Positions 10,870-55,989 of a stretch of 64,000 nucleotides of DNA are shown piece after piece; the stretch's first letter is position 1, and the number at the start of each line of letters is the position of its first letter. The stretch comes from Candidatus Fervidifonticultor secundus (GTDB lineage: Bacteria; Sysuimicrobiota; Sysuimicrobiia; Sysuimicrobiales; Humicultoraceae): NCBI GenBank assembly GCA_031459385.1, contig JAVKIP010000010.1, forward strand, positions 1 through 64,000, in the 5' to 3' direction. Under the pieces are notes generated by a model that searched no databases, was not told the origin of the DNA, and saw only the letters and a list, made by a program, of their open reading frames with translations. The position numbers and the translations under genes are program-made.

Positions 10870-11077
10870 CGGCAGACTCCCTGCAGGCAGACTCCTCCAG
10901 GCACGAACCGAATTCTACAGCAGCGTGGGCGGACTATCCAGGCGTCGTGCCTGCCCTGCAGCGCAGTGCCACCGGCTGCGCTAACAAGAACCCGGACACA
11001 CCGGGCCCGCGGCCAGCCGTGCCGCTGCGGCGTTGACGCATCGTGGACTTCGAATCAGAATCCCCGGAGGAGCCCCG

Positions 11078-11761: not shown

Positions 11762-11788
11762 TGCCTCGCCCCCTGGCGGCCAGACCGC

Positions 11789-13015: not shown

Positions 13016-13073
13016 GCCGCCCCCGTTCTCACCGCCCCGTGCCACAGCGCGCCTCCGTCACGACCTCCGCGTG

Positions 13074-13451: not shown

Positions 13452-14344
13452 CAAAACGGATGCGGGTGCACGGCCGCACCCAGTGTCACACTGTAGTAGT
13501 CGGTACGACGATCGCGAAGAATGACGTTGAGATCACTCCACGTCTTCATCCGTCGCGCCTCGACAAGGTTGCACGTTTCAACCAGAATCTCCTCACGCTC
13601 CGCGCTCGCGGGACCCGCAATCGGCCACCCCGATGGGCCGACAAGAACACTGTGCCCAAGAAACGGCTGCCCGCGCTCTACACCCGTACGGTCGGCTGCC
13701 GCGATAAAGACTCCGTTGCAGTGCGCTCCGGTCATGCAGAGGTACACTGCCATAGGTCGTTCGCCGTCCACCTGTCCCGGAATCGGTACCCAGTTGGTCG
13801 GCACGCACACGAGATCCGCCCCTTGCACCGCCAGTAACCGCACGGTCTCTGGAAACCAGATGTCATAGCAGATTGCCATGCCAACCGTGCCGACCGAGGT
13901 CCGATACACCGGGAACCCCAAGTCTCCGGGCTCGAAAAAGAGTTTCTCCTCGTACCACAGGTGCATTTTGCGATACTTTCCGACGTAGCCTTCCGGGCCA
14001 AGCAACACCGCTGTGTTATAGAGCCTATCGCCCGCCCGCTCCGCGATCCCCGCCGCCACAAACAGTTTGCGGGCGTGCGCCACCTCGCTCCATGCACGCA
14101 CTGTGGGCCCTCCCGGCACCTCCTCCGCTGCCGCATACGCTTCGGCGCGCGTGTTGAACACGTACCCAGAATTGCACAACTCTGGCAGGACGCAGAACTG
14201 GGCGCCTCGATCGGCTGCCTGGTGCAGCAACGCGACACTCCGGTCCACGTTCCTGTCTTTATGCCCCACCTGCGGCTCGAATTGCACACAGGCCACGGCC
14301 ACGAAACTTTCGGATCCACGCAAACGCCCTTCCTCGTCTCCCAC
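13451..14344 (-). CDS. Nitrilase/carbon-nitrogen hydrolase family amidase
   Basis: LPEL, YRKMHL, ICYDIWFPE (Glu-Lys-Cys triad); AAGGAGG RBS. Confidence 0.93.
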   Translation of the reverse strand: MGDEEGRLRGSESFVAVACVQFEPQVGHKDRNVDRSVALLHQAADRGAQFCVLPELCNSGYVFNTRAEAYAAAEEVPGGPTVRAWSEVAHARKLFVAAGIAERAGDRLYNTAVLLGPEGYVGKYRKMHLWYEEKLFFEPGDLGFPVYRTSVGTVGMAICYDIWFPETVRLLAVQGADLVCVPTNWVPIPGQVDGERPMAVYLCMTGAHCNGVFIAAADRTGVERGQPFLGHSVLVGPSGWPIAGPASAEREEILVETCNLVEARRMKTWSDLNVILRDRRTDYYSVTLGAAVHPHPF

Positions 14345-14358
14345 GCCGTCATCCCTCC

Positions 14359-15852: not shown

Positions 15853-16022
15853 CGCTCGAGATGAAACTGAACGACCGGCTCGGCCTCCTCCGGGAGCGCA
15901 ACGGCCCGCAGGGCTTCAACCTCCCGCCAATACTCCGCGAGGTATGCGCCGACCAGCCTCAACTCGTGCTCCGGCAGGGTGTGACCGGCCACGACCGCAA
16001 GTACTGCGAGCGCATCTTCCAT
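15843..16022 (-). CDS. Small helical protein, putative GatC/AtzG-like amidase partner
   Basis: 59 aa with GGAGG RBS; overlaps the amidase start; ends in LPEEAEPVVQF. Confidence 0.6.
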   Translation of the reverse strand: MEDALAVLAVVAGHTLPEHELRLVGAYLAEYWREVEALRAVALPEEAEPVVQFHLERWD

Positions 16023-16035
16023 GCCTGCCTCCAAC

Positions 16036-16866
16036 TCACAGCGTGATGTTCCGCAGGCGAAGGATGATCACCGCCAGAATGACAATCGTCAGGCTCCCGA
16101 GCACGGGATTCCCATAGGCACTCACCAGCACCTGCGCACCGCCGAGCGTCAACGCCGCTACGGCCAGGTTTCCGAGGGACACGCCTGCGACCAATACCAA
16201 CATGAAGGAGTTCACCAGCCACGGAAGCCCCAGGTAGGGGTGCACACTGATCAGGGGTGTGATCAATGCCCCTGCCAAGCTGGCGAGTCCGGCACCTACG
16301 CAGAAGGTGACAAACCGAGTCCGCCGGGTGTCGATGCCCAGGGCCTGCGCGAGTTCCTCATTCATGACCACGGCACGTGCAATCAGTCCGACCTGGGTCC
16401 GCTGGAACAGCGCCCATACCACACCCCCCACGATGCCGGAAATGGCCAGCAGCACCAGCCGGTACTGCGAGTACGTCGTGGCGCCCACGGTGACGGCCTG
16501 CTCGATGGCGCTCCTGGCAAACTGGATCTCACGGCCAAAGTACAACGTGATCGCCTGGGTGATGATGAGATTGAGCCCCCACGTGGCGAGGATCGTGTCC
16601 AGCGGGCGTTCGTAGATCGGTCGGAGCACACGCCACTCGATCAGGGCGGCCAAAGCCATCCCAACAGCAGGTGCAAGTACCACGACGGTCCACGGGTTCC
16701 ACTCCAGGCGTGTCACAACAACGGCGGTATAGGCGCCAGTAGCCAGAAACGCCCCGTGGGCCAAGTTGATAATTTTCAGCACGCCGAAGACCAGCAGAAG
16801 GCCGAGCGCGACGACGTACAGAATGCCGGCGGTGCTCACGACGTCCAACGCCTGTGTCAGTGCCAC
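16036..16866 (-). CDS. Branched-chain/urea-type ABC transporter permease (LivH/UrtB-like)
   Basis: INLAHG, LDTILATWG, multiple TM segments. Confidence 0.9.
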   Translation of the reverse strand: MALTQALDVVSTAGILYVVALGLLLVFGVLKIINLAHGAFLATGAYTAVVVTRLEWNPWTVVVLAPAVGMALAALIEWRVLRPIYERPLDTILATWGLNLIITQAITLYFGREIQFARSAIEQAVTVGATTYSQYRLVLLAISGIVGGVVWALFQRTQVGLIARAVVMNEELAQALGIDTRRTRFVTFCVGAGLASLAGALITPLISVHPYLGLPWLVNSFMLVLVAGVSLGNLAVAALTLGGAQVLVSAYGNPVLGSLTIVILAVIILRLRNITL

Positions 16867-16894
16867 GCCCGGCCCCCTGCCCGCCCAGCGCCCG

Positions 16895-18088
16895 CTACTT
16901 CAGGTTCGGGCACTGGTTCCCGGGATCGATCAACCCGAAACTCTTCAGGACCTTGGTCGTGCCGTCAGCCTGCACCTGCGCCAGGTAGATCGGCAGCGGT
17001 GCGTGGTGCTGTTTGTTCATCTGAATCGGGCCCCGCGGGCCCTTGAAGACCACCGTTGGGAGCACTCTCAGCACGGCCTCCGCATCGGTCGTGCCGGCCT
17101 TCTGGACCGCGAGGGCATAGGCATGGACGCCATCGTACTCCTGCTGCGACAGCGAGTTGGGCGTCTTGAGGTTGGCGCCAAACTTCTTCCGCATGGCTTC
17201 CAGAAACGCTCTGTTCTCGGGCGTTTCGATGCCGGTGAAGTAATCGCCCGTGTAGTAGACGCCCCCGGCGGCACTACCGCCGGCCTGCGCCGTAAGCTCG
17301 TCAATGCTCAGACTGCCCACCGGCAGGGTCAACCCCGCGGCCTTGTACTGCTTCATGAAGTCGATGTTGGGGCCGCCACCTGACGTGGAGTAGATAATGC
17401 CATCGGGATTCGCTGCGCGAATCTTGCTGATAATTGGTGTCCAGTCTGACGCCTGGAGCGGCAGGTACTCCTCGCCGAGAATAGCGCCGCCCATTCGCTT
17501 GATCGTTGCTTTTGCCGCTTCGATCATGCCGCGCCCAAACGCGTAATCACTCCCTAAAGCGAACCATCGTTTGACCTTTTTCTCGTCCGTCATGAATCGG
17601 ATCAACGGCGGCACCACCTGCTCGGGAACCCACGCGTTCACGAACAGGTACTTGCCGCACGCGCGTCCCTCGTAGAACGAGGTATAGATATAGGGCACTT
17701 TCGCCCGCTCCGCGATCGGGTAGCCTGCATTGCGAGCCGCGCTCGTCTCCATGGTGATGATGACATCCACCTTGCGCTGGTAGATCAGGCTATTGAACGC
17801 CTTCACCGCGCCCGCTGGTCCGCTCTCGTCATCGGCCACAGCCAGCTCGACCTTACGCCCAAGCACGCCCCCGCGGGCGTTGATCTCATCGACGGCTAGT
17901 TCCGCAGATTGCACCACTGCTGGCGCCACAACACTATTCACACCGCTCAGGCCTACGGCGATCCCGATGAGAATGGGTCTTTGCTGAGCCTGGCCAGCGG
18001 GTACGAGCCCGAACAGTCCGACCACCAGAAGGCTCACAATAGAAAGCGCGGTCAACAACCTCCTTGCCCTCGGCGCGAGCATGTGCAT
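16895..18088 (-). CDS. Urea/amide-type ABC substrate-binding protein (UrtA/AmiC-like), secreted
   Basis: Signal peptide ending AGQA; EINARGGVLGR, YTSFYEG, LGSDYAFG. Confidence 0.9.
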   Translation of the reverse strand: MHMLAPRARRLLTALSIVSLLVVGLFGLVPAGQAQQRPILIGIAVGLSGVNSVVAPAVVQSAELAVDEINARGGVLGRKVELAVADDESGPAGAVKAFNSLIYQRKVDVIITMETSAARNAGYPIAERAKVPYIYTSFYEGRACGKYLFVNAWVPEQVVPPLIRFMTDEKKVKRWFALGSDYAFGRGMIEAAKATIKRMGGAILGEEYLPLQASDWTPIISKIRAANPDGIIYSTSGGGPNIDFMKQYKAAGLTLPVGSLSIDELTAQAGGSAAGGVYYTGDYFTGIETPENRAFLEAMRKKFGANLKTPNSLSQQEYDGVHAYALAVQKAGTTDAEAVLRVLPTVVFKGPRGPIQMNKQHHAPLPIYLAQVQADGTTKVLKSFGLIDPGNQCPNLK

Positions 18089-18164
18089 ACCACCCCCTTT
18101 GTGTAGTAGACGGCTGGCAGATCCACAAACACCCTCCCCCGCCTCACCTCCCCTCCCCCGCCAG

Positions 18165-18926
18165 TCAGAAGGCCGCAAGATGGCGTTCGACGCGAGTCCT
18201 CGCCTCTGGACTGGCTTCCCCGCTGTCAACGATTCTCCCCGACTTGAGCACGGCGTAGCGATCGGCCAGTCCCAGGGCGAAACGAACGTTCTGCTCCACC
18301 AGGATGATCGTCAGGTCGGCACGCTGCCGCTCCTCCGCGAGGATCTCCCGGAGACGATCGATGATCGCAGGCTGCAACCCCTCGCTGATCTCGTCAACCA
18401 GCAACAGGCGAGGCTCGGCCAGGAGCGCACGCGCCATCAGAAGCATTTTTTGTTCGCCGCCAGACAGCGTGCCGGCACGCTGGCGCCGTCGAAGCGCCAC
18501 CGCAGGAAACCACCGCGCAACGACGTCAAGCCGCTCCTTCCAACGCGGGCGACCCACCACCGCCAGGCGAAGGTTCTCCTCCACCAGCAGATCTTGAAAG
18601 ATCGCCCTCTCCTGCGGCACGTATCCGACACCGTGGCGCGTGATCTGATAGGGAAGCCAGCGGGTGACATCAAACCCCAGGAGCTCGATGTGACCCTCAC
18701 GCCGCGACAGGAAGCCCATCATCGCCTTGAGCAACGTAGACTTGCCCATGCCGTTCTTGCCGAGGATCGCAAAGATCTCGCCCGGTCGAACCCGAAACGT
18801 CACATTGTGCAACACGTAGGACTCCCCGTACCCCGCGTGCAGCGACTCGACACGGACCGCAACTTGCTGCCCCGTCGTATCGCTGGCAACCCCGGGTGCG
18901 TGACGACCCTGCCCGGAGGCCATCAT
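18165..18926 (-). CDS. ABC ATP-binding protein (LivF/UrtE-like)
   Basis: GKNGMGKS, LSGGEQ, LLVDEISEGLQP, VEQN. Confidence 0.92.
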   Translation of the reverse strand: MMASGQGRHAPGVASDTTGQQVAVRVESLHAGYGESYVLHNVTFRVRPGEIFAILGKNGMGKSTLLKAMMGFLSRREGHIELLGFDVTRWLPYQITRHGVGYVPQERAIFQDLLVEENLRLAVVGRPRWKERLDVVARWFPAVALRRRQRAGTLSGGEQKMLLMARALLAEPRLLLVDEISEGLQPAIIDRLREILAEERQRADLTIILVEQNVRFALGLADRYAVLKSGRIVDSGEASPEARTRVERHLAAF

Positions 18927-20812
18927 CCGCGGCTTCCTCCACCGATGTAAATGTCCCGAACAACATCCGACTCCGCGACCTCCGCAGGCGAGCCGTCCAG
19001 CACGATTCTGCCCATGTGAAGCACGACCAGACGGGTACTGATGGTTCGGACAAAGTCGACATCATGCTCGATCAAGACCACACAGAGCTGATGGTCCTGT
19101 GCCAACTCGGTGAGGACCGCCCCGATGGCGGCACGCTCGTCCCCTGTCAGGCCCGCCGTTGGTTCGTCCAGCAGCAACACGTTAGGCTCCAGGGCGAGAA
19201 CCATGGCCAATTCCAGTGCCTGCTTCATCCCATGCGGCAGGTGGCCCGCAGGCCGATCGAGGACAGACAGCAGGCCTGTTGCCTCCACGACGCGCATCGC
19301 CACCGACGGGAGTTCCACCGTGGGCGACCGGCGCCAGACGGACGGGGCCACTCGGTACGACCGGGCAATCCGCAGGCAATCCAGGACGGAGAGCGCCTCG
19401 AACACGTTGGGGGTCTGAAACTTGCGGCCCAGGCCCAGCGCCACACATTCCTGCGGTGGCACGCCATCCGTGCGGTGACCGTTGATGAGGATAGTGCCGC
19501 TGGATCGTTCACGGCCGTCGCTGATGCAGCGAAGCAACGTGGTCTTGCCGGCTCCGTTCGGACCGACGATACTCACGACTTCACCCTTGCGCACCGTAAG
19601 CGTCACCCCGCGGAGGACCGGCAGACTGCCGTACCACTTCGTCACATCCCGTAACTCCAGCGCGGGCGGCCGGTCCGCGCGCAGCCCGATCCCCCCAGGG
19701 CCGGTGCCGGTCCCCACCGCCGGACCTGGCGACGCGATCGCGCGCACCACGGCCGTCTCCCCGGTACCCGGCCGCTCTGTGCGCCAGTCGGACCGGTGCC
19801 TGAACCTGCGGCCGACCATTCCCACCTTCTGCAACAGGGGCGGGACGAGCCCGTGGGGCAGGTAGACTACCACAACCACGAAGACCGTGCCGATGACGAG
19901 GAGCCAGACAAACGGCAGATTGCCGCCGAGAATAGCCGACACGTAGTTGATCCCAATGGTGCCGAGGATCGGTCCGGCCAGCGTTCCTCGTCCGCCGAGC
20001 GCGGTCCACACGACGAGTTCGGTCCCAAACAGAAAGTCACCGTACTGTGGCGCCGCCACGCTGGCGAAGAGAACATAGAATGCGCCGGCCAGCGCGGCCA
20101 GGGCACTGCATGCCGTCATGAGTCCGATTTTCCAGCGTGAAGGCCTCAGTCCCAGATACCGGCACCGCTCCTCGTTCTCCCTGATGGCCAGGAGGATCCG
20201 CCCTGCATCGCTCGTCACGAGCACGTAGGTGGCGGTGGCTACTATCAGCACGACCCCCCCAGAAAGCCAGTACCAGTGTTCAAATGAAAGGGGTGGGACC
20301 GGGATGGGCAGGCCGCTGCTAGAGCCGGTAAACGAACCGCCGCTCAGAATGATCTGGGTGAAGACTATCGGCAACGCCAGCGTGACCACGCCAGGATAGA
20401 TGGGCGATGCTCCGTCCCAAAATGCCAACCATGCGACCAGTGCTCCAATCGCGGCGGCCACAACCATGGCACCAAGCGAAGCCGCAACAATCCCGACAAG
20501 ACCACTGGCGTAGTGGGCGAGCACCAACCCCACGCCGTAGACGCCGATGCCAAAGAAGGCCGACTGACCGAAGGTGAGGACGCCGGTATAGCCCCACAGC
20601 AGGTCCACCGAGATTGCCGCTACCGCGAAGAGGAATGCCTGCGAAAGAATCCGCAGTGCGAATGTGCCCAATACAAGGGGACCCATCCCCCACGCCGCCA
20701 CCAGCGTAGCTGCCACCAGCAGTTTCTGCCACGGCGGAACGCGGGGCACCGCTACACGCCCGGGCCGACCAGTGCCACTCCCAGTTCTCCAAGTCGGCGA
20801 GTCTTCTGTCAC
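18923..20812 (-). CDS. Fused ABC permease and ATPase (LivM-LivG / UrtC-UrtD-like)
   Basis: N-terminal TM domain (LLWGYTG, AIRENE, GGRGTL) and C-terminal GPNGAGKTT, LLLDEPTAG, IEHD. Confidence 0.9.
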   Translation of the reverse strand: MTEDSPTWRTGSGTGRPGRVAVPRVPPWQKLLVAATLVAAWGMGPLVLGTFALRILSQAFLFAVAAISVDLLWGYTGVLTFGQSAFFGIGVYGVGLVLAHYASGLVGIVAASLGAMVVAAAIGALVAWLAFWDGASPIYPGVVTLALPIVFTQIILSGGSFTGSSSGLPIPVPPLSFEHWYWLSGGVVLIVATATYVLVTSDAGRILLAIRENEERCRYLGLRPSRWKIGLMTACSALAALAGAFYVLFASVAAPQYGDFLFGTELVVWTALGGRGTLAGPILGTIGINYVSAILGGNLPFVWLLVIGTVFVVVVVYLPHGLVPPLLQKVGMVGRRFRHRSDWRTERPGTGETAVVRAIASPGPAVGTGTGPGGIGLRADRPPALELRDVTKWYGSLPVLRGVTLTVRKGEVVSIVGPNGAGKTTLLRCISDGRERSSGTILINGHRTDGVPPQECVALGLGRKFQTPNVFEALSVLDCLRIARSYRVAPSVWRRSPTVELPSVAMRVVEATGLLSVLDRPAGHLPHGMKQALELAMVLALEPNVLLLDEPTAGLTGDERAAIGAVLTELAQDHQLCVVLIEHDVDFVRTISTRLVVLHMGRIVLDGSPAEVAESDVVRDIYIGGGSRG

Positions 20813-20910
20813 GTGTCAAGCCGCTGCGCTACACAATCGACCACCACGAGTCGGTTCCCGGCGCATCACCGGCCGACGAAACACCCTCCAGATCGCAGCC
20901 CCCTCCGTGA

Positions 20911-20977
20911 AGCATACGACGCCGCGCGGGAAAGCCGTCAAACGGATTCTCGTTATGACGTGATAAGGGTTTTCGAT
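20911..20977 (-). promoter_or_regulatory. Putative LysR-dependent promoter of the amide operon
   Basis: Minus strand: ATC-GAAAACCCT-TAT (T-N11-A, 20963-20977), TTGACG (20936-20941), 19-nt spacer, TATGCT (20911-20916). Confidence 0.5.
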
Positions 20978-21016
20978 ATACGGACCACAAGACCCAGACG
21001 CAGACGATCTCGTGGG

Positions 21017-22213
21017 CTACGCGCGCAGGGCAACTCCAGGTCGGACCGTCGCTGGTTCGACACCCTCGAACGACTGCACAGACTCGAACATGTCGTGTCC
21101 ACCGGTCCACCCCTCGCGAACGCGGAGCAGATGGGATGGGAGAATCGCCTGGCGATCAACGGGGCGGATGCGAATGGTACCCTGTGGAGCGCCGTCGAAG
21201 CTCAAGCCGCACAGCGCCTCCCTGACGGCACTGCTCTCGAGCGTGCCCGCGCGGGCGACGGCCCGCATGGCCATGTGCGCCGCATTGTACATCGCCACTC
21301 CCACCGTGTTCATCATCGTGTCGCGGCCAAACTTCCTCCGTAGCCGTGCGAGGAACGCGCGGTTGTTTGGATGCTCCAATGCCATGAAGTAGTCGAAGCT
21401 GGCGTAGTCACCTGCCGATGCTTCGGGACCGACCCGCGCCGTCACGATCTCTTCATCGTCGACACTCCAGAGGGCGACATTCCGCCGCATGCCCGTTGCG
21501 TGCAGTTGCCGGCGAAACTCCACGCTATCGTAAGCGGCCACGCTGCTGAAGATCACGTCAGGCCTGGCGGCGCGAATCTGCTCCAGGACGCCATCGTACC
21601 GCCGTGTCCCCAACGGTACATACAACTCGCCGACGATCTCCCCCCCCACGTCGCAGATCCGCTGCCTGACCAAACGATTCGTACCGCGAGGCCAGACGTA
21701 ATCCGACCCAATCAGAAAAAACCGTCGTCCGTGCTCACGGAGCATGTACTCCACATGAGGCCACACCTGTTGGGTGGGCTCCAGGCCAAACATGAAGATG
21801 TTCTCGTTGCACACCCCGGGGTACTCCGCAGGATCCTGGCCCTCGTAGAAAGTCGGATAGAGTAGCAGGCAGCGTGCGGCGGTCACAACGGGGCCTACGG
21901 CGTTGCGCTCGGCACTGCTGAACGTTCCGGCCAGCAGATCCACCCGCTCCTGGTGAATGAGACGGTACGCCTGCTCTGCCGCGGCTTGGGGATCCGTCCG
22001 GGAGTCGGCCACGACGATCTGCACGCGCCGCCCCAGCACCCCTCCCGCCCTGTTGATCTCGTCGACCGCGAGTTCGAAACCCGAGAAGTGGGCGCGCCCG
22101 TACGCCGTCCAGGCCCCTGTCAGGGGAGAGACGACGCCCACGCGGATCGGCGGCTCCTCACGCCGACGACTGCGCCCCCCTGCCCAAGGCTTCCGGGTTG
22201 CCCGCTGCCCCAC
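21017..22213 (-). CDS. AmiC/UrtA-like ligand-binding protein without signal peptide
   Basis: AGTFSSAER, YPTFYEG, PTQQ, IGSDYVWPR; N-terminus basic with no hydrophobic core. Confidence 0.85.
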   Translation of the reverse strand: MGQRATRKPWAGGRSRRREEPPIRVGVVSPLTGAWTAYGRAHFSGFELAVDEINRAGGVLGRRVQIVVADSRTDPQAAAEQAYRLIHQERVDLLAGTFSSAERNAVGPVVTAARCLLLYPTFYEGQDPAEYPGVCNENIFMFGLEPTQQVWPHVEYMLREHGRRFFLIGSDYVWPRGTNRLVRQRICDVGGEIVGELYVPLGTRRYDGVLEQIRAARPDVIFSSVAAYDSVEFRRQLHATGMRRNVALWSVDDEEIVTARVGPEASAGDYASFDYFMALEHPNNRAFLARLRRKFGRDTMMNTVGVAMYNAAHMAMRAVARAGTLESSAVREALCGLSFDGAPQGTIRIRPVDRQAILPSHLLRVREGWTGGHDMFESVQSFEGVEPATVRPGVALRA

Positions 22214-22396
22214 GCGTTCTGACTCCCCTCGGGCGTTGCCACAACACGCCCGCAGTTACTCTACTCCCGGACGCGCCGCGGCACCAAGAAAAATCTGTTT
22301 ATCACCTGAGAACATCTCCACAGGATTCCTCGTCCCATGACGCGAAGCGTCCCTGTCAATGCGGGTCGAGGCCGGGCGCTGAGAGGCGGGGGCGGG

Positions 22397-23383
22397 GTGG
22401 AGATCTCCCAGGTGGAGGCCTTTCTGGCGATAGCGACGTTCGGGAGCTTCCGGCGCGCAGCAGAGTCCCTGAACCTGACACAGCCTGCGGTGAGTGCCAG
22501 AATCAAAGCCCTTGAACGCTCCCTGGGGACACATCTTTTTGAACGCGACCGGCGCGAAGGGGTCACACTGTCCGATGCGGGAAGACGGTTCCGCCCCCAT
22601 GCCGAGCACCTCTTGCACACGGCGGCACTGGCCCGGCTCGCGATTCAGGCTCGCAGACCGCATGACGGCGGCGCCTCGCTCCATGTGGCTGCCGTGCTCC
22701 CAGTGTGCACCTATCTGCTGCCTCAGGCCCTCAAGCGATTCCGCAGCCAGTATCCTGATACGGTCGTGAGCATCCGTTCCGGCTCCCCCAAGAGTGTCGC
22801 AGAGGTGCTGCTGACCGGTAACGCGGAGATCGGAGTTGCTCGCTCCCTCCGTCACCCTGACCTGGAGACCATCAGCCTCGCGGATGATCCTCTCGTGCTC
22901 GTGGGTGGTCCCAGGGCACCCATCACGCCACGGCGGCCCGTGCGTTGGGCGGAGATCGCCGATCGTCCGTTCATCTTCGTCGACCGCGGATCCGACGATT
23001 GGGCCCTCACCCAAAGTCTGTTTCGACGCGCTGGCGTGGTCCCCAATATCGCCCTGGAAGTGGAGACGACGGAACTCGCGATCCGCATGACCGAATATGG
23101 GATGGGATTAGCGCTCCTGCCGTACCTTTCTGTGGCCGAGGAACTGCGACGGAGAAAGCTGGTAGCCCTGACGGTGACGGACGTCGATCTGCCCAGCGGC
23201 AGCCTCGACGTCGTTCATCGGCGCCGCCGGGCGCTGACTCCCATCACCCTGGCGTTTCTCAACATCATCCGCGAGACCTATGCAGGCATGGTCGCCCAGC
23301 GAACACGCGGGACGCGTCGTCATGCAGGACTCCTGCGGGCCTCGGCGTCACGCCCGTCGCGCATGGTGGTCACGTCTTCCTGA
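22397..23383 (+). CDS. LysR-family transcriptional regulator
   Basis: GSFRRAAESLNLTQPAVSARIKALE HTH plus substrate-binding domain. Confidence 0.95.
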   Translation: MEISQVEAFLAIATFGSFRRAAESLNLTQPAVSARIKALERSLGTHLFERDRREGVTLSDAGRRFRPHAEHLLHTAALARLAIQARRPHDGGASLHVAAVLPVCTYLLPQALKRFRSQYPDTVVSIRSGSPKSVAEVLLTGNAEIGVARSLRHPDLETISLADDPLVLVGGPRAPITPRRPVRWAEIADRPFIFVDRGSDDWALTQSLFRRAGVVPNIALEVETTELAIRMTEYGMGLALLPYLSVAEELRRRKLVALTVTDVDLPSGSLDVVHRRRRALTPITLAFLNIIRETYAGMVAQRTRGTRRHAGLLRASASRPSRMVVTSS

Positions 23384-23501
23384 ACCCGAGGGAAACCCGT
23401 TGCCCCTGTTGGGGAAGATGCGCGCAGTGTCCTGGTGGACACCACAGGCGCCACACCCGGCCATCGCAAGATCAAGGGTGCCCGGCCGATGCTGACACAG
23501 A

Positions 23502-23529
23502 CAGGACGCGGGTTCCCGCCCGCGTCCTG
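23502..23529 (-). terminator. 11-bp perfect hairpin just downstream of tmRNA
   Basis: CAGGACGCGGG-ttcccg-CCCGCGTCCTG; no strong U tract. Confidence 0.5.
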
Positions 23530-23541
23530 CAAGAACACTGA

Positions 23542-23889
23542 TGGTGGAGGCGGCGGGTATCGAACCCGCGTCCTGAGTGAATGAGGGCCAGGCGTCTACG
23601 AGCGTAGTCTGCGTTCTGGATCTCGCGGCCGCCGGCTCCCGCAGACCGGATCCGTCAGCCGCCAGCCCGTTGAATTCCCGTCACGCGCCCCGGGCCAGGA
23701 CTCGTGCCGGTAGCCGGCCGGTAGCGCCTCGCCCGGGCCGCCGGCACTCCCGGGGAGACGTCGTCGCTATTTAAGCGGCGAGAGCGTACTGGTTGTTGGC
23801 GTTTATCGCCGTGCCAGTTGATTAACGAGGACCTGGCACCTCGGCTCGCAGCCTCGCTTCTTCCCACCCAGTCGAGACCGTTCGCCCCC
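23542..23889 (-). ncRNA. ssrA: tmRNA, tag peptide (A)ANNQYALAA encoded at 23800-23771
   Basis: 5' GGGGGCGAACGGTCTCGAC, 3' GGACGCGGGTTCGATACCCGCCGCCTCCACCA, tag ORF ending YALAA-TAA; smpB 4 kb away. Confidence 0.97.
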
Positions 23890-23912
23890 GCACCGGTCAT
23901 CCGACTGATCTC

Positions 23913-23923
23913 AGTATACCACA
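23913..23923 (-). promoter_or_regulatory. Extended -10 promoter of ssrA
   Basis: TGTGGTATACT about 24 nt upstream of the mature 5' end. Confidence 0.65.
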
Positions 23924-24056
23924 CGGCGAAACACCTCTGGGGGCCCAGACGGCCAGACCTCTCTGGGGTGCGGGGCCCACACCGACGTCATGGGCGCCCC
24001 GGTCCCCCGGCCAGGCGGCGCAGGACGCGCGCCCGGGGCGCCAGAACCGCCCTGCC

Positions 24057-49345: not shown

Positions 49346-50317
49346 CTACCGCGCCCGCATCAGCACGAACGACGCCAGTGCCTGCAGGCTCGCCCGGGCC
49401 GGTCCGGGCGGCAGCGGGTGGAGCGCGGTCACGGCCCGGTCGGCGTAGGCCTGCGCCACGTGCAGCGCCCGCCGCACGCCGCCGTAGCGATCCACGAGCG
49501 CCTGCAGTTCGGCAAGCCCCCCGGCCCCACCGCGGACCAGCGCCCGCAGGCGGTCGCGATCCGCCGGGGGGGCCTCGCGCAGCGCGGCGATGACCGGCAG
49601 GGTCGTCTTTCCGGTGTCGATGTCGCTGCCGATGGGCTTCCCCATGGCCTCGGGGTCGCCGACCAGGTCCAGCGCATCGTCGGTGATCTGGAAGCACATC
49701 CCCCAGGCCAGGCCGAAGGCTTCGAGCGCGTCGGCGACCGCGGGTGTAGCCCCGGCTACCAGCCCGCCCGCCCGGCAGGCCGCCGCGAACAGGCGCGCGG
49801 TCTTGCCTTCGATGATGCGGAAGTAGACGGCGTCGTCGTCGTAGGGCTCGCCGCCGACCTTGGTCGCCAGGATCTCGGCCTCGCTCATGGCCACGGCCGC
49901 CCGCGCGATCGTCGGCGCGACCTGGGGATGCCGGATCCGGCTCACCAGGTCGAACGCGGTCGCGAAGAGGTAGTCGCCCAGCAGCACGGCGATCTGGTTG
50001 CCCCAGAGCACATTGACCGTGGAGACACCGCGGCGCAGATCGGAGGCGTCGATCACGTCGTCGTGGACCAGCGAGGCGATGTGGATCAACTCCACGGCCC
50101 CGGCCAACCAGAGGCGCTGCTCGTCGGCCCCGCCCGCCGCCGCCGCCGACAGCAGCGCCAGCGCCGGGCGGACCAGCTTGCCGCGCGAGGCCAGCACGTG
50201 CTCGACGAGCTCGCCGATGAAGGGGTCGTCGGTGCGCAGCTCGCGTCGCAGCAGATCGTACAGCCCCTCGAGGTCGTCGGCGACGGGCCGGTAGATCTCC
50301 TGGAGATCCAACGCCAC
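49346..50317 (-). CDS. Long-chain polyprenyl diphosphate synthase (quinone side chain)
   Basis: GKLVRP, ASLVHDDVID (FARM), GKTA, FQITDDALD (SARM). Confidence 0.93.
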   Translation of the reverse strand: MALDLQEIYRPVADDLEGLYDLLRRELRTDDPFIGELVEHVLASRGKLVRPALALLSAAAAGGADEQRLWLAGAVELIHIASLVHDDVIDASDLRRGVSTVNVLWGNQIAVLLGDYLFATAFDLVSRIRHPQVAPTIARAAVAMSEAEILATKVGGEPYDDDAVYFRIIEGKTARLFAAACRAGGLVAGATPAVADALEAFGLAWGMCFQITDDALDLVGDPEAMGKPIGSDIDTGKTTLPVIAALREAPPADRDRLRALVRGGAGGLAELQALVDRYGGVRRALHVAQAYADRAVTALHPLPPGPARASLQALASFVLMRAR

Positions 50318-50319
50318 GC

Positions 50320-50736
50320 TCAACGGTCCACCCTGATGGTCATCGCCATGCCGGCCTCGCGGTGGCCGGGGATGTTGCAGTAGGCGGTGTGCGCTCCCGG
50401 CGGCAGCTCGAAGATCGCGGTCCTGGTCTCCCCTGGCGGCACGCCGTCGATGGCCGCGCCCGGTATCGCGTCGACGACCAGGTTGTGCTCCACCAGCCCC
50501 TCGTTCCTGACCCGCACGGCGATCCGCCCGGCCCGCACCACGACCGAGGGCGGCGCAAACGCCCACTCGCGCGCGACCACCTCCACGGTCGCCGCCGGGG
50601 AGCGCTCGGGCGACCCGCTCCGCGGACCGCAGGCGCCGCCAACCAGTGCCAGCACCAGCAGCGCCGCGCGGTAGGCCCGCAGGCTCCGCCGGTGCCCTGA
50701 CCCCCTCTCTCCCGGCGAGAGAAGCCGCCGTCTCAC
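50320..50736 (-). CDS. Cupredoxin (type-1 copper) lipoprotein
   Basis: Lipobox-like GGAC; EHN and CNIPGHREAGM. Confidence 0.88.
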   Translation of the reverse strand: MRRRLLSPGERGSGHRRSLRAYRAALLVLALVGGACGPRSGSPERSPAATVEVVAREWAFAPPSVVVRAGRIAVRVRNEGLVEHNLVVDAIPGAAIDGVPPGETRTAIFELPPGAHTAYCNIPGHREAGMAMTIRVDR

Positions 50737-50746
50737 GCCCTAGCCT

Positions 50747-50851
50747 TCAGGCTTCAGCGATGAGGCCGAACGACGCGACGAACGCCAGCAGCAGGAAGAA
50801 GAAGACGTAGAAGAGCAGGTAGGCCAGCCAGACGCGCAGCGGGCGCTTCAT
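50747..50851 (-). CDS. 34-aa single-TM protein (below ORF-track cutoff)
   Basis: GGAGGAGGG RBS, ATGA overlap with the mvhD-like stop; MKRPLRVWLAYLLFYVFFFLLLAFVASFGLIAEA. Confidence 0.7.
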   Translation of the reverse strand: MKRPLRVWLAYLLFYVFFFLLLAFVASFGLIAEA

Positions 50852-51336
50852 GCCCCTCCCTCCTCCGCAGGCTGGGCGGCGGCCGCCGGCCGCCGCGCGG
50901 GCCCCGTGCCGCTGGCTGCCGGCCCCAGGGCCCGGAGGCGCTCCACCATGGCCGCGATGTCGGCGAGAAACGCCTCCCGGTCGTGGAGCCCATGGGCCAG
51001 CATCTGCAGGCGCTCCGGCGGCACCCTGCGTCGCTGCAGCCGCCGCTGCAACTGGTCCACGCGCTCGCGCATCAGGTAGTTGCCCTCGCGGTTCAGGCAG
51101 TCGCCGTAGGGGCACCCGACCACGAAGACGCCGTCGGCGCCGGCCTTGAGCGCGTCCTCCAGCCAGCCTGGCCGGATGAAGCCCGAGCACGGGATGCGGA
51201 TGAGGACCACGGACGGGTGGGCGAGCAGCCGGCCGGCCGCATCCGCCAGGTCGGTCGTGGCCACCGCCCAGTCGCATACGAAGCCCACGATCCGGGGAGC
51301 CCAGGCGCCGTGCGCGGTCGATGCCTGCGCCGTCAT
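50848..51336 (-). CDS. MvhD/FlpD-like [2Fe-2S] protein
   Basis: IVGFVCDW, IRIPCSG, GADGVFVVGCPYGDC..REGN, PERL; ATGA overlap with the upstream gene. Confidence 0.9.
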   Translation of the reverse strand: MTAQASTAHGAWAPRIVGFVCDWAVATTDLADAAGRLLAHPSVVLIRIPCSGFIRPGWLEDALKAGADGVFVVGCPYGDCLNREGNYLMRERVDQLQRRLQRRRVPPERLQMLAHGLHDREAFLADIAAMVERLRALGPAASGTGPARRPAAAAQPAEEGGA

Positions 51337-52508
51337 GCCCGCACCGCCGCTGCCACCTGCACCGCCTCCTGCACGCGCCGCGTCACGTCGGCTTCCAGCA
51401 GACCCGGGAGTTCCAGCGCCTCGAACGGGCACGCGCCGATGCAGATGCCGCACTCGACGCACCGCGAGTCGATGACCACCGCCAGCAGCTTGCGGCTCGC
51501 CGCAGCCCGCGACAGGCCGGGGTGGGGCGACGGGACCATGACGATGGCGTTGTAGGGGCAGTCGTAGTAGCACAACTCGCAGCCCGTGCAGTTGCCGTCG
51601 ATGACCTGTGCCACACCCGCGTGCCGCACGCCCATCTCCCGCGGCGTCTCGCGGCTGAGATAGGGGATGACGAACCCCGCCCCCAGCGTCACTGCCACCA
51701 GGGCCACCACCAGACCGGGCGGCACGAAGCCGGCGAGCCAGAACGGCAGCAGGAAGAAGACGTCCAGCGGCATCGCCTGCGGGGCGGTTCCGGGCCGGGC
51801 CGGGACCCCGCCGACCGCCGGGATCACCGCCGCCAGCACCGTTACCAGCCCCAGGCTGACCAGCACCCAGGTGGCAGGCGGCCAGACCTTCGGATGGCGC
51901 AGCCGCACGTAGTGCCACCACAGCAGCACGTAGAGCAGCGACGCCGGTCCGACGTGCAGCAACAGAATGCGGGGCAGGGTGCCCTCCGACAGCCCGGCGC
52001 CGCCCACCAGCAGGCCGGCCAGCGCGTCGCCGACGGCCGGGATGGCCCGCAGCAGTCGGTCGAACAGGCCCAGCACGGCCAGCGCCCGCTCGTCCCATAC
52101 CAGGATGTAGCCGGTGGCGCCCACGAAGCCGCCGAAGATGAGCATGAACATCCCCGAGATCCACGGGGAGTCGCGCGAGAACAGGTACCGGTCGGTGAAC
52201 CAGTTCCGGAAGAGGTGCAGCAGGGCTGCCACGATGAACGCATCGGCCGCGTACCGGTGGATGCCCCGGATCAACCCCCCGTACGGCACCTGCTCGGTCA
52301 GGTAGACCACCGACGGGTGCGCGCCGCCGAGGCTCGGCACGTAGTAGAAGAAGATGAAGATCCCGGAGAGGACCAGGATGAACAGGAACAGGTTCGTGAG
52401 CCCGCCGGTGTAGTAGAGCGGATTCCAGTCCGTGGGGTAGATGCGGTTGATGCCCACGTCCAGGCGCAGGGTGAACCGTTGCAGCGCGGTCAGGGCTTTC
52501 CGGTACAC
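51333..52508 (-). CDS. Cytochrome b (four His) fused to a 2x[4Fe-4S] ferredoxin domain
   Basis: H-x13-H pairs at codons 52257/52215 and 51954/51912; GYILVWD; CTGCELCYYDCP and CVECGICIGACP. Confidence 0.9.
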   Translation of the reverse strand: MYRKALTALQRFTLRLDVGINRIYPTDWNPLYYTGGLTNLFLFILVLSGIFIFFYYVPSLGGAHPSVVYLTEQVPYGGLIRGIHRYAADAFIVAALLHLFRNWFTDRYLFSRDSPWISGMFMLIFGGFVGATGYILVWDERALAVLGLFDRLLRAIPAVGDALAGLLVGGAGLSEGTLPRILLLHVGPASLLYVLLWWHYVRLRHPKVWPPATWVLVSLGLVTVLAAVIPAVGGVPARPGTAPQAMPLDVFFLLPFWLAGFVPPGLVVALVAVTLGAGFVIPYLSRETPREMGVRHAGVAQVIDGNCTGCELCYYDCPYNAIVMVPSPHPGLSRAAASRKLLAVVIDSRCVECGICIGACPFEALELPGLLEADVTRRVQEAVQVAAAVRA

Positions 52509-52518
52509 AGGGCCCCCC

Positions 52519-52788
52519 TCACGGCACGGGCTTGACCCACCGCCCGCGCAGGTCGTCCTCCGCCTCGGCGCGGCGCGGCCCGATCGTCCCCAGCTTGCGG
52601 AGCAGCAGCAGGATCAGGCCGTAGACGATGAACAGCACACCCAGGGCGGCGCCGCCGAGCTGCCAGAACACGCGGCGCTCGGCGCTGCCCAGGGCCTCGC
52701 CCAGCACGATGAGCGCCGCGCAGGCCGCACCCACCACCGCGAGCCCCAGGACCCCGCTGGTGTACCTGCGGCTGCTGTCCTCCATCAT
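52519..52788 (-). CDS. Small two-TM protein
   Basis: ATGA overlap with the upstream gene; two hydrophobic segments. Confidence 0.7.
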   Translation of the reverse strand: MMEDSSRRYTSGVLGLAVVGAACAALIVLGEALGSAERRVFWQLGGAALGVLFIVYGLILLLLRKLGTIGPRRAEAEDDLRGRWVKPVP

Positions 52789-53066
52789 GCCGATCCGGCA
52801 CCCCCCTGCGGGCGATCCGCCCGCCGGTCCAACCAGCGGTCGAACAGCGGCATCGGCCGACGCGTGCGGCCCGCGGTCCGGTCGGCCGCGTAGATGACGA
52901 ACGCCAGGTACCCCAGGCTGACCCAGAACGCCGCCATCCAGCCCAGGGCCTCGACCGGCCCGTACAGCCGCTGGCCTTCCAGGGCACTGCGCACCCCCTG
53001 CCACAGGCGCGAGAAGCTCTCCACCGCCACCGCGAACGCCGCCACGGAGCCGCCGAGCCGCAGCAT
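52785..53066 (-). CDS. Small two-TM protein
   Basis: Starts 3 nt after the cytochrome b stop; two hydrophobic segments. Confidence 0.7.
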   Translation of the reverse strand: MLRLGGSVAAFAVAVESFSRLWQGVRSALEGQRLYGPVEALGWMAAFWVSLGYLAFVIYAADRTAGRTRRPMPLFDRWLDRRADRPQGGAGSA

Positions 53067-53069
53067 CGC

Positions 53070-54257
53070 CTAGTGCGCCTCCGCCCGCGCGACCCCGGCG
53101 GCTGCCACCGCGCGGCCGGAGGCGCCGGCCGCTGCCTGCGCCGCGGCGCGCGCCTGCTGCCGGCGGTACCGGAGCTCCCAGACGAACGCCAGCGTCAGCA
53201 CGACGGTCGTCACCAGCAACACCAGCGGCGGCTCGCGCTCGATCACAGCGATGTTGAACAGGATCAACGCCGTGAAGACCAGGAAGTAGACCAGCGCCAG
53301 CAGACCCACCACGAAGAAGAACGGACGCTCCAGGGGCCGGCGGCCCTTGCTGCGGTCGAGAAACGGCACCAGCATTCCGAAGCCGATCAGCAGCCCGGGC
53401 CCCAGGCCCGCCCACAGCGGCGGCGTGTACTTCACGTACTGGTAGAGCGCCAGGAAGTACCAGTCCGAGAGGATGGGCAGCGGAGTGCGGTTGGGATCGG
53501 CGCGGCGGCCGAGCTCCGCCGGCAGCGCCCAGGAGATGTAGACCAGCATGACCGAGAACAGCAGGATCGGAAACAGCGACATGTTCAGGCGCTGCCGCCG
53601 CGTGCGGTAGTAGAACACCTCGATGACGATGAGCAGCACCAGCGAGATCCCGAAGTGCAGGGCGTAGAAGCGCGTGAGGGTGGCGGCGCCGATGGCCGGC
53701 CCGCCCAGGAACAGGTAGGCGATCATGGAGCCGACCTGGAACCGCTCGCCGATGACCGGGATCTTGGCAGTGAGCTCGTCGAAGTACACCGGCACGGTCA
53801 GCACCGTCTTGGCCGCCCAGAACGCCCGCTGGTTCCAGATGAGCAGGTAGCCGGTGATCCCGGAGATCATGGCCAGCACGAGCCCCGCGAACCCCCAGAT
53901 CCAGCTTAGCTCGCCCGGCCGTTTGTACTCGCCCAGGAAGTACATGCGGTAGATGCGGAGGATGATGCACAGGATCACGCCGTCGGCCGCGTACTTGTGG
54001 ACGCCGCGGATCAGCCAGCCCAGCGGCACCGCGTGCTGGATGTGCAGGATGGAGTTGTACGCGCCCTCGGGCGTCGGCTCGTACCAGAGCATGAGCAGGA
54101 TGCCGCTGACCACGGTGACGAGCCAGAAGTAGTACAGCATCGGGCCCAGCAGGTAGAACGGGTTCGCCTGCCGGGTCACCATCGTCTCGTCGAACAGGTC
54201 CAGCCGGCTCCGGCGGTCCCGGTACCACTCGCGCAGGTTGTCCCACACCCTGGCCAT
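53070..54257 (-). CDS. Cytochrome b of a Rieske/cyt b complex (unsplit), lacking both heme bH ligands
   Basis: YEPT..AY.S, GWLIRGVH, GEYKRPGELSWIWG, GYLLIWNQRAFWA, TLTRFYALH, TPLPILSDWYFL, VPFLD. Confidence 0.92.
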   Translation of the reverse strand: MARVWDNLREWYRDRRSRLDLFDETMVTRQANPFYLLGPMLYYFWLVTVVSGILLMLWYEPTPEGAYNSILHIQHAVPLGWLIRGVHKYAADGVILCIILRIYRMYFLGEYKRPGELSWIWGFAGLVLAMISGITGYLLIWNQRAFWAAKTVLTVPVYFDELTAKIPVIGERFQVGSMIAYLFLGGPAIGAATLTRFYALHFGISLVLLIVIEVFYYRTRRQRLNMSLFPILLFSVMLVYISWALPAELGRRADPNRTPLPILSDWYFLALYQYVKYTPPLWAGLGPGLLIGFGMLVPFLDRSKGRRPLERPFFFVVGLLALVYFLVFTALILFNIAVIEREPPLVLLVTTVVLTLAFVWELRYRRQQARAAAQAAAGASGRAVAAAGVARAEAH

Positions 54258-54302
54258 CGGTCCTCGCTACGGTGTCTGGTGGGGCGCTGCAGGACCCCGC
54301 CC

Positions 54303-54965
54303 CTAGGCGATCCCGCCCGGCTCGACGTGGCGCACCAGCACCTGGTCGCCCTCGACGGTGTAGAAGAACGTCCGCGGGGGCCGCGGGGCTGGTCCCGACA
54401 GCACCCGCCCGGGCTGCTCGGGATCGGCCGGGTCGTAGATGCTCAGGTGGCACGGGCATCCCATGAGGGCATGCTGGCGGCTCTTGGGCGGGACGTAGCC
54501 ACCGTAGCCCGCGGTGATCTCGCGCCAGTCGGCGACGAAGTTGTAGATGCACCCCAGGTGCGGGCAGATCCGGGAGAAGACGATGATCTCGCTCTCGGTG
54601 AACTGCGGCGTCTCCCCGATGGCGCGCACCCAGTCCCAGGGCATGCGGATCTTGGTCGGCAGGCGGATCGCCACGCCCGGCACCGACGCGCTCCGGAAGC
54701 CCTCGGGCGTGTACTGGGGGTACTTCTGGGTGTAGACAAAGTACTTGAAGTCCCAGGGCTTCTGCAGTTCGGCCAGCGTCGCCGCCACGACCGGCTCGCC
54801 CGCCGGCGGATCGTGCTTGGTCGGCTGCAGCACGTTGAAGGGCTCCACGTTCGGCTTGAGGAAGCGCAAAAGCGGCGAACCGAACGCGACGAGTCCTCCC
54901 ACCAGCGGCAGCGCCGCAGCGGCGCGGAGGAAGCGGCGGCGATCCAGGACGCGGTCGTGGGCCAT
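54303..54965 (-). CDS. Rieske [2Fe-2S] protein with Tat signal/anchor
   Basis: DRRRFL, CPHLGC, CPCHLSIY, GPAPRP. Confidence 0.95.
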   Translation of the reverse strand: MAHDRVLDRRRFLRAAAALPLVGGLVAFGSPLLRFLKPNVEPFNVLQPTKHDPPAGEPVVAATLAELQKPWDFKYFVYTQKYPQYTPEGFRSASVPGVAIRLPTKIRMPWDWVRAIGETPQFTESEIIVFSRICPHLGCIYNFVADWREITAGYGGYVPPKSRQHALMGCPCHLSIYDPADPEQPGRVLSGPAPRPPRTFFYTVEGDQVLVRHVEPGGIA

Positions 54966-55041
54966 CAGCAAGCTCCCACATCCAGCATACACGGCCGCCA
55001 CGCGCCCGGGGAAGTGGACCCGACCGGACCGGCCATCGGTC

Positions 55042-55989
55042 TCACGGCTGCTGCCCGCGCGGCGGCGCGTAGTCGTACATGAAAGTCCGCACGTAGTCCA
55101 CCAGTGCCCAGATCTCGTCCTCCTCGAGCTTGCCCCGGTACGCGGGCATCAGGCCGCGGCCGTCCGCGATACGCTGGAAGAGCTCGGTGGGCTTGCGGGC
55201 CGCCAGGAAGTTGGCGTCGGTGAAGATGCCGGCCCCGACGCGATCCCGCCAGCCCCACACGCCGGCCGCCATCTCCTCGGACAGCCGGCCGCCCCGGCCG
55301 TCGCCGGCGGGGCCGTGGCAGTCGGCGCACGTGGCGACCCGCCCGCCGCCGATGTCCAGCGCCCGGGTCTGATAGATCTCCCTACCGCGCGCGATGGTCT
55401 GCGGCGTGGTGGCGAATGTCCAGGCGTAGAACAGCACGTCCCAGATCTGCTCGTCGGTGAGCGTCGCCGGCCCCTTGTTGGCGCCGTAGGCCGGCTTCCG
55501 GCCGAACGCCGGCATGGCCGTGTGCGGGCGGCCGAGCTTGATCGTCTCGAAGAGCACCCATGGCGCGTTCAGGCGCATCGCGATCTGGTTGTGGAAGTTG
55601 GCGGGACGGGACGGGATCCTCTCACCCTTGATCGCCAAGCCCCAGAGCCTGAAGAAATCGGTGAGGGGGTTCTTCTGCGGCGACGTCAGGCCGCTGGCGG
55701 CCGGACCGTCGCCGAACCCTTCGTCGCCGTGACAGACCGCACAGGTGCGCTCGAACGTGGCCCGCCCGCGCACCGCGGAGGGTTTGAAGCCGGGGGCGCC
55801 GTCCACCAGTGGCCGCAGGACCGCCTGTTGCCCCAGCCCCGCACCAACCGTCGCCGCGGCGCCGCGCACGCGCACGGTCGGCTGGCATCCCGCGGCGAAC
55901 ACAGCGACAGCGACGATCGCGGGGAGCACGCGCAGCGCGATCGTCAGCGAGCGGGCGGCTTCCATCGTCAACGGCATGAACGATTCCAC
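55042..55989 (-). CDS. Di-heme cytochrome c lipoprotein
   Basis: Lipobox AAGC; CAVCH and CADCH; AMPAF and LMPAY distal Met motifs; start uncertain. Confidence 0.9.
   Translation of the reverse strand: MESFMPLTMEAARSLTIALRVLPAIVAVAVFAAGCQPTVRVRGAAATVGAGLGQQAVLRPLVDGAPGFKPSAVRGRATFERTCAVCHGDEGFGDGPAASGLTSPQKNPLTDFFRLWGLAIKGERIPSRPANFHNQIAMRLNAPWVLFETIKLGRPHTAMPAFGRKPAYGANKGPATLTDEQIWDVLFYAWTFATTPQTIARGREIYQTRALDIGGGRVATCADCHGPAGDGRGGRLSEEMAAGVWGWRDRVGAGIFTDANFLAARKPTELFQRIADGRGLMPAYRGKLEEDEIWALVDYVRTFMYDYAPPRGQQP

Follow-up and report, generated by a model that had tools for sequence, protein, structure and literature searches.

To our knowledge, the known bc1, b6f and Firmicute-type bc complexes are homodimers of one cytochrome b, and the field has held both the symmetry of the enzyme and the four haem-ligating His residues of the subunit to be invariant. 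In bc1 structures, the first His of helices B and D ligate haem bL, and the His 14 residues on from each ligate haem bH. The in vivo weight of electron transfer between the two bL haems has so far been argued from engineered mutants. We describe herein an operon of nine minus-strand open reading frames (ORFs; 50320-55989) in a window of 64,000 nucleotides, the whole stretch of DNA analysed, from Candidatus Fervidifonticultor secundus of the phylum Sysuimicrobiota (positions 1 to 64,000 of the forward strand of contig JAVKIP010000010.1, assembly GCA_031459385.1). The operon encodes two different cytochromes b, one (b-1) that carries a quinol-oxidation (Qo) motif and lacks both bH ligands, and one (b-2) that keeps all four His and is fused to a 2x[4Fe-4S] ferredoxin domain. 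We show that a bH-less cytochrome b co-occurs with such a cytochrome b-ferredoxin and with an MvhD-like protein wherever this can be judged, and that the two-cytochrome-b operon is a conserved family and not a local oddity.

Several described systems come close to one part or another of this arrangement. In a survey by Kao & Hunte 2014 (PMC4122944), sequences missing any of the four His were discarded, the reason given being that haem loss would break the Q cycle; the text of the same survey describes a 'PDWF-FeS clade', in which cytochrome b is joined to 4Fe-4S and MvhD domains and no Rieske gene lies in the cluster. This clade may be the same group as the 'subfamily H' set out by Dibrova et al. 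2017 (PMC5600118), which comprises large proteins with cytochrome b domains and is described there as being of unknown function. The text of that study also sets apart a 'subfamily K' of Cyanobacteria, in which Glu or Gln stands in place of the haem His of helix 2 and the haem content is called obscure. For the anammox Rieske/cytochrome b complexes with NAD(P) oxidoreductase subunits, a proposal of Kartal et al. 2013, as related in PMC12954380, is a quinol-based bifurcation to low-potential reductant, NAD(P)H. Engineered, cross-inactivated bc1 dimers are reported to work via bL-bL transfer in vivo, sustaining growth (PMC4152375, PMC4330944). Finally, a 'complex III-IV' arrangement has been described in Melainabacteria, with its genes annotated petB and petC (PMC6349859).

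A preliminary description of the locus, drawn from its letters, had listed this run of genes, with ccm genes before it and a polyprenyl synthase after it. ORF reading and a Pfam search bear out the whole list: CcmF, CcmE and CcmC genes lie upstream, and the operon and its downstream neighbour are as follows.

55042..55989, minus strand: di-haem cytochrome c, membrane-anchored; two CxxCH motifs (PF13442, 1.5e-17; PF00034, 2.6e-15) and one N-terminal hydrophobic span
54303..55001, minus strand: Rieske [2Fe-2S] protein exported by twin-arginine translocation (Tat); RRRFLR Tat motif, CPHLGC and CPCH boxes
53070..54257, minus strand: b-1, cytochrome b with N- and C-terminal cytochrome b domains (PF00033, 1.1e-32; PF00032, 8.6e-07)
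52785..53066, minus strand: tmA, small membrane protein; no Pfam family above cut-off, no His
52519..52788, minus strand: tmB, small protein with two transmembrane spans; no Pfam family above cut-off, no His
51333..52508, minus strand: b-2, cytochrome b (PF00033, 1.1e-26) with C-terminal 2x[4Fe-4S] (Fer4 families)
50848..51336, minus strand: FlpD/MvhD-like protein (PF02662, 9.1e-30)
50747..50851, minus strand: pep34, single-helix micro-protein of 34 residues ending SFGLIAEA, found by ORF reading
50320..50736, minus strand: exported cupredoxin (PF00127, 5.5e-05; PF13473, 4.3e-05) with type-1 copper motif C-x4-H-x4-M
49346..50290, minus strand: polyprenyl synthase (PF00348, 1.8e-64), given as context, membership in the complex not being implied

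The partial translational coupling noted earlier is present as four-base ATGA overlaps that join tmA to tmB, b-2 to mvhD and mvhD to pep34. As to membership in the Rieske/cytochrome b family, the Rieske boxes, the export signal and a PEWY-type Qo motif (the SDWY of b-1) are all found; the four-His feature is missing from b-1, the subunit with the Qo motif, and is present in b-2. The match of the Rieske protein to PF00355 is weak (0.0047, under the cut-off). The b-1-type genes of related loci have Rieske homologues of 33-76% identity immediately before them, with the di-haem cytochrome c conserved upstream of the Rieske gene in turn; this cytochrome is probably the high-potential acceptor of electrons from the Rieske protein.

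b-1 is a full-length cytochrome b of about eight helices with SDWY as its Qo motif. The bL ligands His87 and His201 are in place, and the bH positions 14 residues on are occupied by Arg101 and Phe215, as the preliminary description had read them. Since b-1 contains five His in all, and tmA, tmB and pep34 contain none, no residue is at hand to supply a bis-His bH site. In a 24-sequence alignment of the b-1 family, His87, His201, Glu213, Asp265 and Trp266 are invariant, and the substitutions at the bH positions, Glu213 and SDWY are maintained over several phyla at 31-88% identity, with frames open. Cytochrome b ligands were also surveyed in 126 representatives of at least 300 residues, out of 150 listed (24 shorter ones were dropped). 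Nineteen of the 126 are b-1-like, with Arg or Lys at the helix-B bH position (one gap) together with [S/P/A]DWY, and HHHH with PEWY-like motifs is the rule for 104 of the other 107; no b-1 orthologue had regained the helix-B bH His. A quick tree of cytochromes b (LG+G4, midpoint drawing) recovers the b-1 family as monophyletic, with 98% support in the Shimodaira-Hasegawa-like approximate likelihood ratio test (SH-aLRT). Outside this clade, exceptions to the four-His rule are P0369 (HRHH, PPWY), P0374 (HQHH, PEWY) and P0388 (HHHY), and one row is gapped at the last position; each of the three named proteins lacks one bH ligand, so loss of a bH His may have arisen more than once.

b-2 retains His84, His98, His185 and His199. 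Its Fer4 matches cover residues 297-374, and the eight Fe-S Cys are invariant in 24 sequences. An AlphaFold2 model of the monomer (mean predicted local distance difference test score 80.1, predicted template-modelling score 0.83) shows helices A-F followed by an alpha/beta domain at 289-370; because six helices run from a cytoplasmic N-terminus in the cytochrome b topology, we infer that the 2x[4Fe-4S] domain faces the cytoplasm. Among solved structures, the closest to b-1 and to b-2 are both cytochrome b6 chains (3.3e-51 and 3.5e-52, respectively), and none is a cytochrome b-ferredoxin fusion, the best matches to b-2 covering the cytochrome b6-like part or polyferredoxins only. The FlpD/MvhD protein scores 103.6 bits against PF02662, for a cut-off of 22.3, and its C21, C50, C75 and C80 are invariant in a 15-sequence alignment. 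In the Mvh-Hdr structure four Cys bind a [2Fe-2S] cluster, and the four-Cys site here is presumed to be a [2Fe-2S] site as well. A contact between b-2 and MvhD is supported by natural fusions, in that three of the four long relatives of b-2 returned are single cytochrome b-Fer4-FlpD polypeptides, the fourth being cytochrome b-Fer4. In those three (P0395, P0397 and P0398), residues from about 560 to 757 form an extra hydrophobic helix and a C-terminal domain of ~150 residues, with no Pfam match.

Close homologues of b-1 and b-2 are numerous in metagenome-assembled genomes (MAGs) labelled Armatimonadota at NCBI, often on the same contig; according to two papers, the clade is CSP1-3/Sysuimicrobiota. 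A neighbourhood survey with one genome per species returned 80 loci, of which 44 contain a bH-less [S/P]DWY cytochrome b. These 44 come from Sysuimicrobiota, Deinococcales, Holophagaceae, Anaerolineae, Vampirovibrionales/Melainabacteria/Obscuribacter, Caldisericia and some MAGs labelled 'Proteobacteria', at least one of which (that of locus L065) belongs to the GTDB class of Obscuribacter. In 35 of the 44, a four-His cytochrome b with two CxxCxxCxxxC motifs lies in the same locus, and in eight more the contig ends at or within about 500 nt of b-1. MvhD follows b-2 in 32 of the 35 loci, the remaining three being truncated. No cytochrome b-ferredoxin fusion was found in any of the 36 loci with a canonical four-His/PEWY cytochrome b. 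Of 201 genomes sampled from the class of Obscuribacter (Vampirovibrionia), 119 have b-1, 119 have b-2, 117 have both and 80 have neither; the discordant genomes are two with b-1 and two with b-2 alone, and in all four the gene lies at a contig end. Full-length b-2 occurs in 80 of 94 genomes of the window's own phylum (a count that includes the unpublished G016 and G024), with fragments in two more; G010, which has no b-2 match, has its b-1 at a contig end. Neither gene is present in 11 of the 94, six of which have a canonical HHHH, PEWY/PDWY cytochrome b beside a Rieske gene. Whether a bH-less cytochrome b is regularly accompanied by cytochrome b-ferredoxin and MvhD, a question raised in the preliminary description, can thus be answered in the affirmative wherever the locus can be judged, and the conservation of the cluster extends to several phyla. 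Furthermore, four of five other genomes examined have no PF00033 genes besides b-1 and b-2, and the product of the operon is probably the only complex III of many lineages.

The surroundings of the operon vary among these lineages in ways that bear on its function. A FixO/CcoO gene lies ahead of it in the four other loci examined (L055, L039, L037 and L065), and FixO/CcoO with the di-haem cytochrome c precedes the Rieske gene in Obscuribacter, Holophagaceae, a Deinococcales MAG and a 'Gammaproteobacteria' MAG, an order of FixO/CcoO, cytochrome c and Rieske that matches the Melainabacteria 'complex III-IV' arrangement as described in PMC6349859. The operon is permuted in a Caldisericia MAG (L081:3105-9602), where the Rieske gene is followed by b-2 and MvhD; next come two FeS proteins (Fer4_8 and Fer4_22) and a flavoprotein with NAD_binding_1 and DHODB_Fe-S_bind domains, and b-1 with two small ORFs stands last. 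The gene set is thus conserved in a changed order, and a nucleotide-binding endpoint has been added. No cytochrome c gene was detected in that locus. The Caldisericia b-2 is shorter (335 residues) and has no Qo-like loop.

The small proteins recur as well. The preliminary description had called tmA and tmB two-span membrane proteins; a crude hydropathy scan agrees for tmB and finds one clear span in tmA. In other phyla, too, b-1 is followed by a pair of small ORFs (Caldisericia, with b-2 at a different place in the operon, are among them), and tmB has tblastn matches in related Sysuimicrobiota loci. Thirty-two of the related loci continue beyond mvhD, and in 22 of these an ORF ending in FG[LI][IV]AE lies downstream of it. 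The same tail forms the C-terminus of the b-1-type proteins P0244, P0245 and P0252, and this fusion gives a hint that pep34 may sit on b-1.

Taken as sequence evidence, these features are consistent with a b-1/b-2 heterodimer and a path through bL(1), bL(2), bH(2), the Fe-S clusters and MvhD. b-1 and b-2 would be paired as the two cytochrome b subunits are in a bc1/b6f dimer, and quinol would be oxidised at the Qo site of b-1. One electron would pass to the Rieske protein, the di-haem cytochrome c and then the cupredoxin or, in other phyla, a cbb3-type oxidase. The other would move from bL of b-1 across to b-2, first to its bL and then to its bH, the crossing being made because b-1 has no bH of its own. 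From bH of b-2, the electron might reduce quinone at a retained quinone-reduction (Qi)-type site, or might run through the two [4Fe-4S] clusters to the [2Fe-2S] of MvhD and a cytoplasmic partner, which in Caldisericia is probably the NAD(P)-binding flavoprotein. That a single complex holds both cytochromes b seems to us rather probable, and our best explanation of the operon, a single variant Rieske/cytochrome b complex in which two non-equivalent cytochromes b are combined, with the electron path just given, is moderately favoured. A net export of low-potential electrons to the cytoplasm is a tentative addition, the truth of which we doubt. We regard as somewhat unlikely the most far-reaching form of the proposal, namely an obligate natural heterodimeric complex III in which bL-to-bL transfer between monomers would be the sole productive route and quinol bifurcation would drive a low-potential electron via bH, 2x[4Fe-4S] and MvhD to a cytoplasmic acceptor, giving ferredoxin- or NAD(P)H-level reductant at the cost of oxygen reduction.

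A number of observations weigh against such a heterodimer or its path, and several of them favour two separate, co-regulated enzymes instead. The Rieske protein, b-1 and cytochrome c would then make up a quinol:cytochrome c oxidoreductase that lacks a Q cycle, both electrons leaving via the Rieske protein with bL as a transient store, and b-2/MvhD would be a homodimer acting as a NarI/NarH-like or QmoC-like redox loop from quinone to a cytoplasmic partner. Fused cytochrome b-ferredoxin-MvhD proteins were found at 80 metagenome loci, 23 of them with at least 3 kb on both sides; 21 of these 23 contain neither a second cytochrome b nor a Rieske gene, in agreement with the fused proteins without Rieske described in the text of Kao & Hunte 2014 (PMC4122944). 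None of the second cytochromes b met with in the fused-protein loci was bH-less, six being HHHH and a seventh (L157) being cut off after helix B. Fused b-2-like proteins that stand alone imply that the b-2 module is able to function in the absence of b-1, probably as a homodimer. The earlier statement that b-2 keeps all four His but has no PEWY-like motif holds in its first part; LDVF aligns with SDWY/PEWY, its Asp is conserved in at least 90% of 24 b-2 sequences and is invariant in a set of 12 that includes fused forms, and b-2 may therefore own a quinone site. The 'complementary losses' ascribed to the pair accordingly stand for the bH ligands of b-1 and were overstated for the Qo site of b-2. 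The two proteins share 30% identity, and in the quick tree b-1 joins the canonical Rieske-type cytochromes b with 99% support and b-2 falls with the FeS-fused lineage; their origin as sister paralogues, by recent duplication of a homodimer subunit, was rejected on this placement. In one genome (G094) the b-1 and b-2 genes are unlinked, b-2 and MvhD being on another contig than the remaining one of the 44 b-1-type loci (L054). A double cytochrome b, b-1 fused to b-2, was not found among the four longer b-2 relatives, which is weak evidence. The flavoprotein partner that had been anticipated did not turn up either: no HdrA-type partner lies beside either FlpD gene of the genome, where a genome-wide HdrA search was not made, and no acceptor for MvhD, HdrA or other, was identified in the genome.

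Against separate enzymes, b-1-type genes never occur without b-2 where this can be judged, which is unexpected for a self-sufficient b-1, and pep34 ties the two ends of the operon together. A b-1 homodimer would also leave the bL electron with no exit, and the established bc1 mechanism suppresses double oxidation via the Rieske protein. The dependence appears to be one-sided, since b-1 is always found with b-2 and the FeS-type cytochrome b occurs without b-1. On this evidence, two separate enzymes are an unlikely explanation. Less likely again is a single heterodimeric complex whose iron-sulfur arm is an input, so that ferredoxin, or NAD(P)H by way of a flavoprotein, would act as a cytoplasmic reductant feeding MvhD, the 4Fe-4S clusters and bH of b-2, and its electrons would either aid quinone reduction at the Qi-type site, like the proposed ferredoxin-to-haem-ci cyclic flow of b6f, or drive a reverse (confurcating) Qo site. 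The direction of flow cannot be read from sequence, the nearest solved structure of both b-1 and b-2 is cytochrome b6, the family is frequent among the non-photosynthetic sister class of Cyanobacteria, and the Caldisericia relatives carry the extra NAD-binding flavoprotein with no cytochrome c gene in the locus, all of which would suit an input. However, the position of the operon after a cbb3-type oxidase subunit gene in the four loci named above fits forward quinol oxidation, and passing electrons from NAD(P)H to quinone by such a route would waste energy relative to complex I, an argument made for the anammox complexes in PMC12954380. Scarcely credible, in our view, is a b-1 that is a decaying or non-functional paralogue, or whose missing His are an artefact of alignment or assembly. 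Nothing beyond the missing ligands themselves speaks for this, and it is contradicted by conservation, that is, by the same substitutions, the invariant Glu213, the intact SDWY and the open frames across several phyla, as well as by the genomes in which b-1 and b-2 are the sole cytochrome b genes. One variant complex containing both b-1 and b-2 therefore remains our preferred explanation.

Other observations concern the MvhD domain and the fused proteins. The operon contains neither an HdrA-type partner nor a hydrogenase, and a Pfam search of the window found no NAD(P)-binding flavoprotein subunit. The CCG-domain family has seven matches in the genome; as it also occurs in 12 of 14 control genomes, these matches are uninformative on the acceptor. 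The only other FlpD match of the genome lies inside a polyferredoxin of 621 residues on contig C14 (locus L118:32-12845), flanked by two molybdopterin-oxidoreductase/4Fe-4S/NrfD sets that are Psr-like or alternative complex III (ACIII)-like; this is a second, unrelated tie between an MvhD domain and a membrane quinone module. In three metagenome loci (L123, L124 and L151), a normal four-His split cytochrome b, a Rieske gene and a cytochrome c gene lie 1-3 kb upstream of the fused cytochrome b-ferredoxin-MvhD gene, an order of genes that could stand midway between canonical bc complexes and the b-1/b-2 type.

With regard to the ends of the operon and its wider setting, the cupredoxin is a possible soluble or anchored electron acceptor; its membership is uncertain because tblastn places it after pep34 in only two related loci (L036 and L070). 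A second, partial copy of the operon is present on contig C29 of the same assembly (locus L002:1-2540), with a di-haem cytochrome c, a Rieske gene and b-1', which has 84% identity to b-1 and is also bH-less; the copy runs off the start of the contig, leaving 2.5 kb visible. The genome assembles one b-2 only, its estimated contamination is 5.5%, and a four-contig genome of the same genus (G001) has just two cytochrome b matches. The partial copy may be a strain variant, a contamination or a real paralogous operon. Within the window, positions 10000-24000 have a G+C content of 0.62-0.68, as against 0.70-0.76 elsewhere, and may be an island or a gene set of different composition. Nine DNA runs and no RNA run are among the sequencing runs listed as carrying the operon; the four strong DNA runs are hot-spring metagenomes from one study.

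If the proposal is true, a natural, conserved complex with a bH-less Qo subunit would make bL-bL transfer obligatory and would offer a ready-made test system for it. In its most far-reaching form, the proposal would also give Sysuimicrobiota, Vampirovibrionia and other phyla a widespread source of reducing power for autotrophy, one that bypasses the reverse flow of electrons through complex I. The two-cytochrome-b complex appears to be the sole complex III in many uncultured aerobes, including the non-photosynthetic sister class of Cyanobacteria. As its genes are annotated merely petB and petC in the text of PMC6349859, metabolic reconstructions may miss a link from the quinone pool to cytoplasmic iron-sulfur or NAD(P) chemistry.

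How much of this architecture is new may be stated in two parts. Its b-2/MvhD half is already known as a sequence observation of 2014 (PMC4122944); the pairing of that half with a bH-less cytochrome b was not found described in the main texts searched, where figures and supplements could bear on the claim. Two papers on CSP1-3 (PMC11604079 and PMC11962464) mention neither complex III nor Rieske in their main text. Like canonical Rieske/cytochrome b complexes, the operon has a Tat-exported Rieske protein, a c-type cytochrome and a cytochrome b whose Qo motif is of the PEWY type; unlike them, it has two different cytochromes b, and the one that bears SDWY is without bH ligands. It shares with the PDWF-FeS clade, as described in PMC4122944, the succession of cytochrome b, 4Fe-4S and MvhD and an xDW[FY]-like motif, and b-2 groups with such fused proteins in the tree. 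The clade proteins, however, are single fused polypeptides with no Rieske in the cluster, whereas in the operon MvhD has an ORF of its own, the start of which overlaps the stop of b-2, Rieske is encoded three genes upstream of b-2, and a bH-less partner is present. Subfamily K, as presented in PMC5600118, likewise consists of natural cytochromes b with a replaced helix-2 haem His, but its members are short, occur as extra copies beside a normal b6 and have no cytochrome b-ferredoxin/MvhD partner described there. In contrast, b-1 is a full-length protein with Arg or Lys at the helix-2 position and can be the only Rieske-linked cytochrome b of an organism. The anammox complexes, by the account in PMC12954380, resemble the operon in that a Rieske/cytochrome b core is joined to a cytoplasmic FeS chain, to which the Caldisericia relatives add an NAD-binding flavoprotein. 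They differ in being modelled as homodimers with a normal di-haem (plus ci) split cytochrome b and a glutamate-synthase-like subunit, and in having no bH-less cytochrome b, no cytochrome b-ferredoxin fusion and no MvhD. The engineered cross-inactivated bc1 dimers (PMC4152375, PMC4330944) offer a functional likeness, since their activity hinges on bL-bL transfer, one monomer contributing the only active Qo site and its neighbour the only active exit. Those enzymes are laboratory fusions of two bacterial cytochromes b, whereas the operon would be, if the still unproven proposal holds, their natural, ancient and widespread equivalent.

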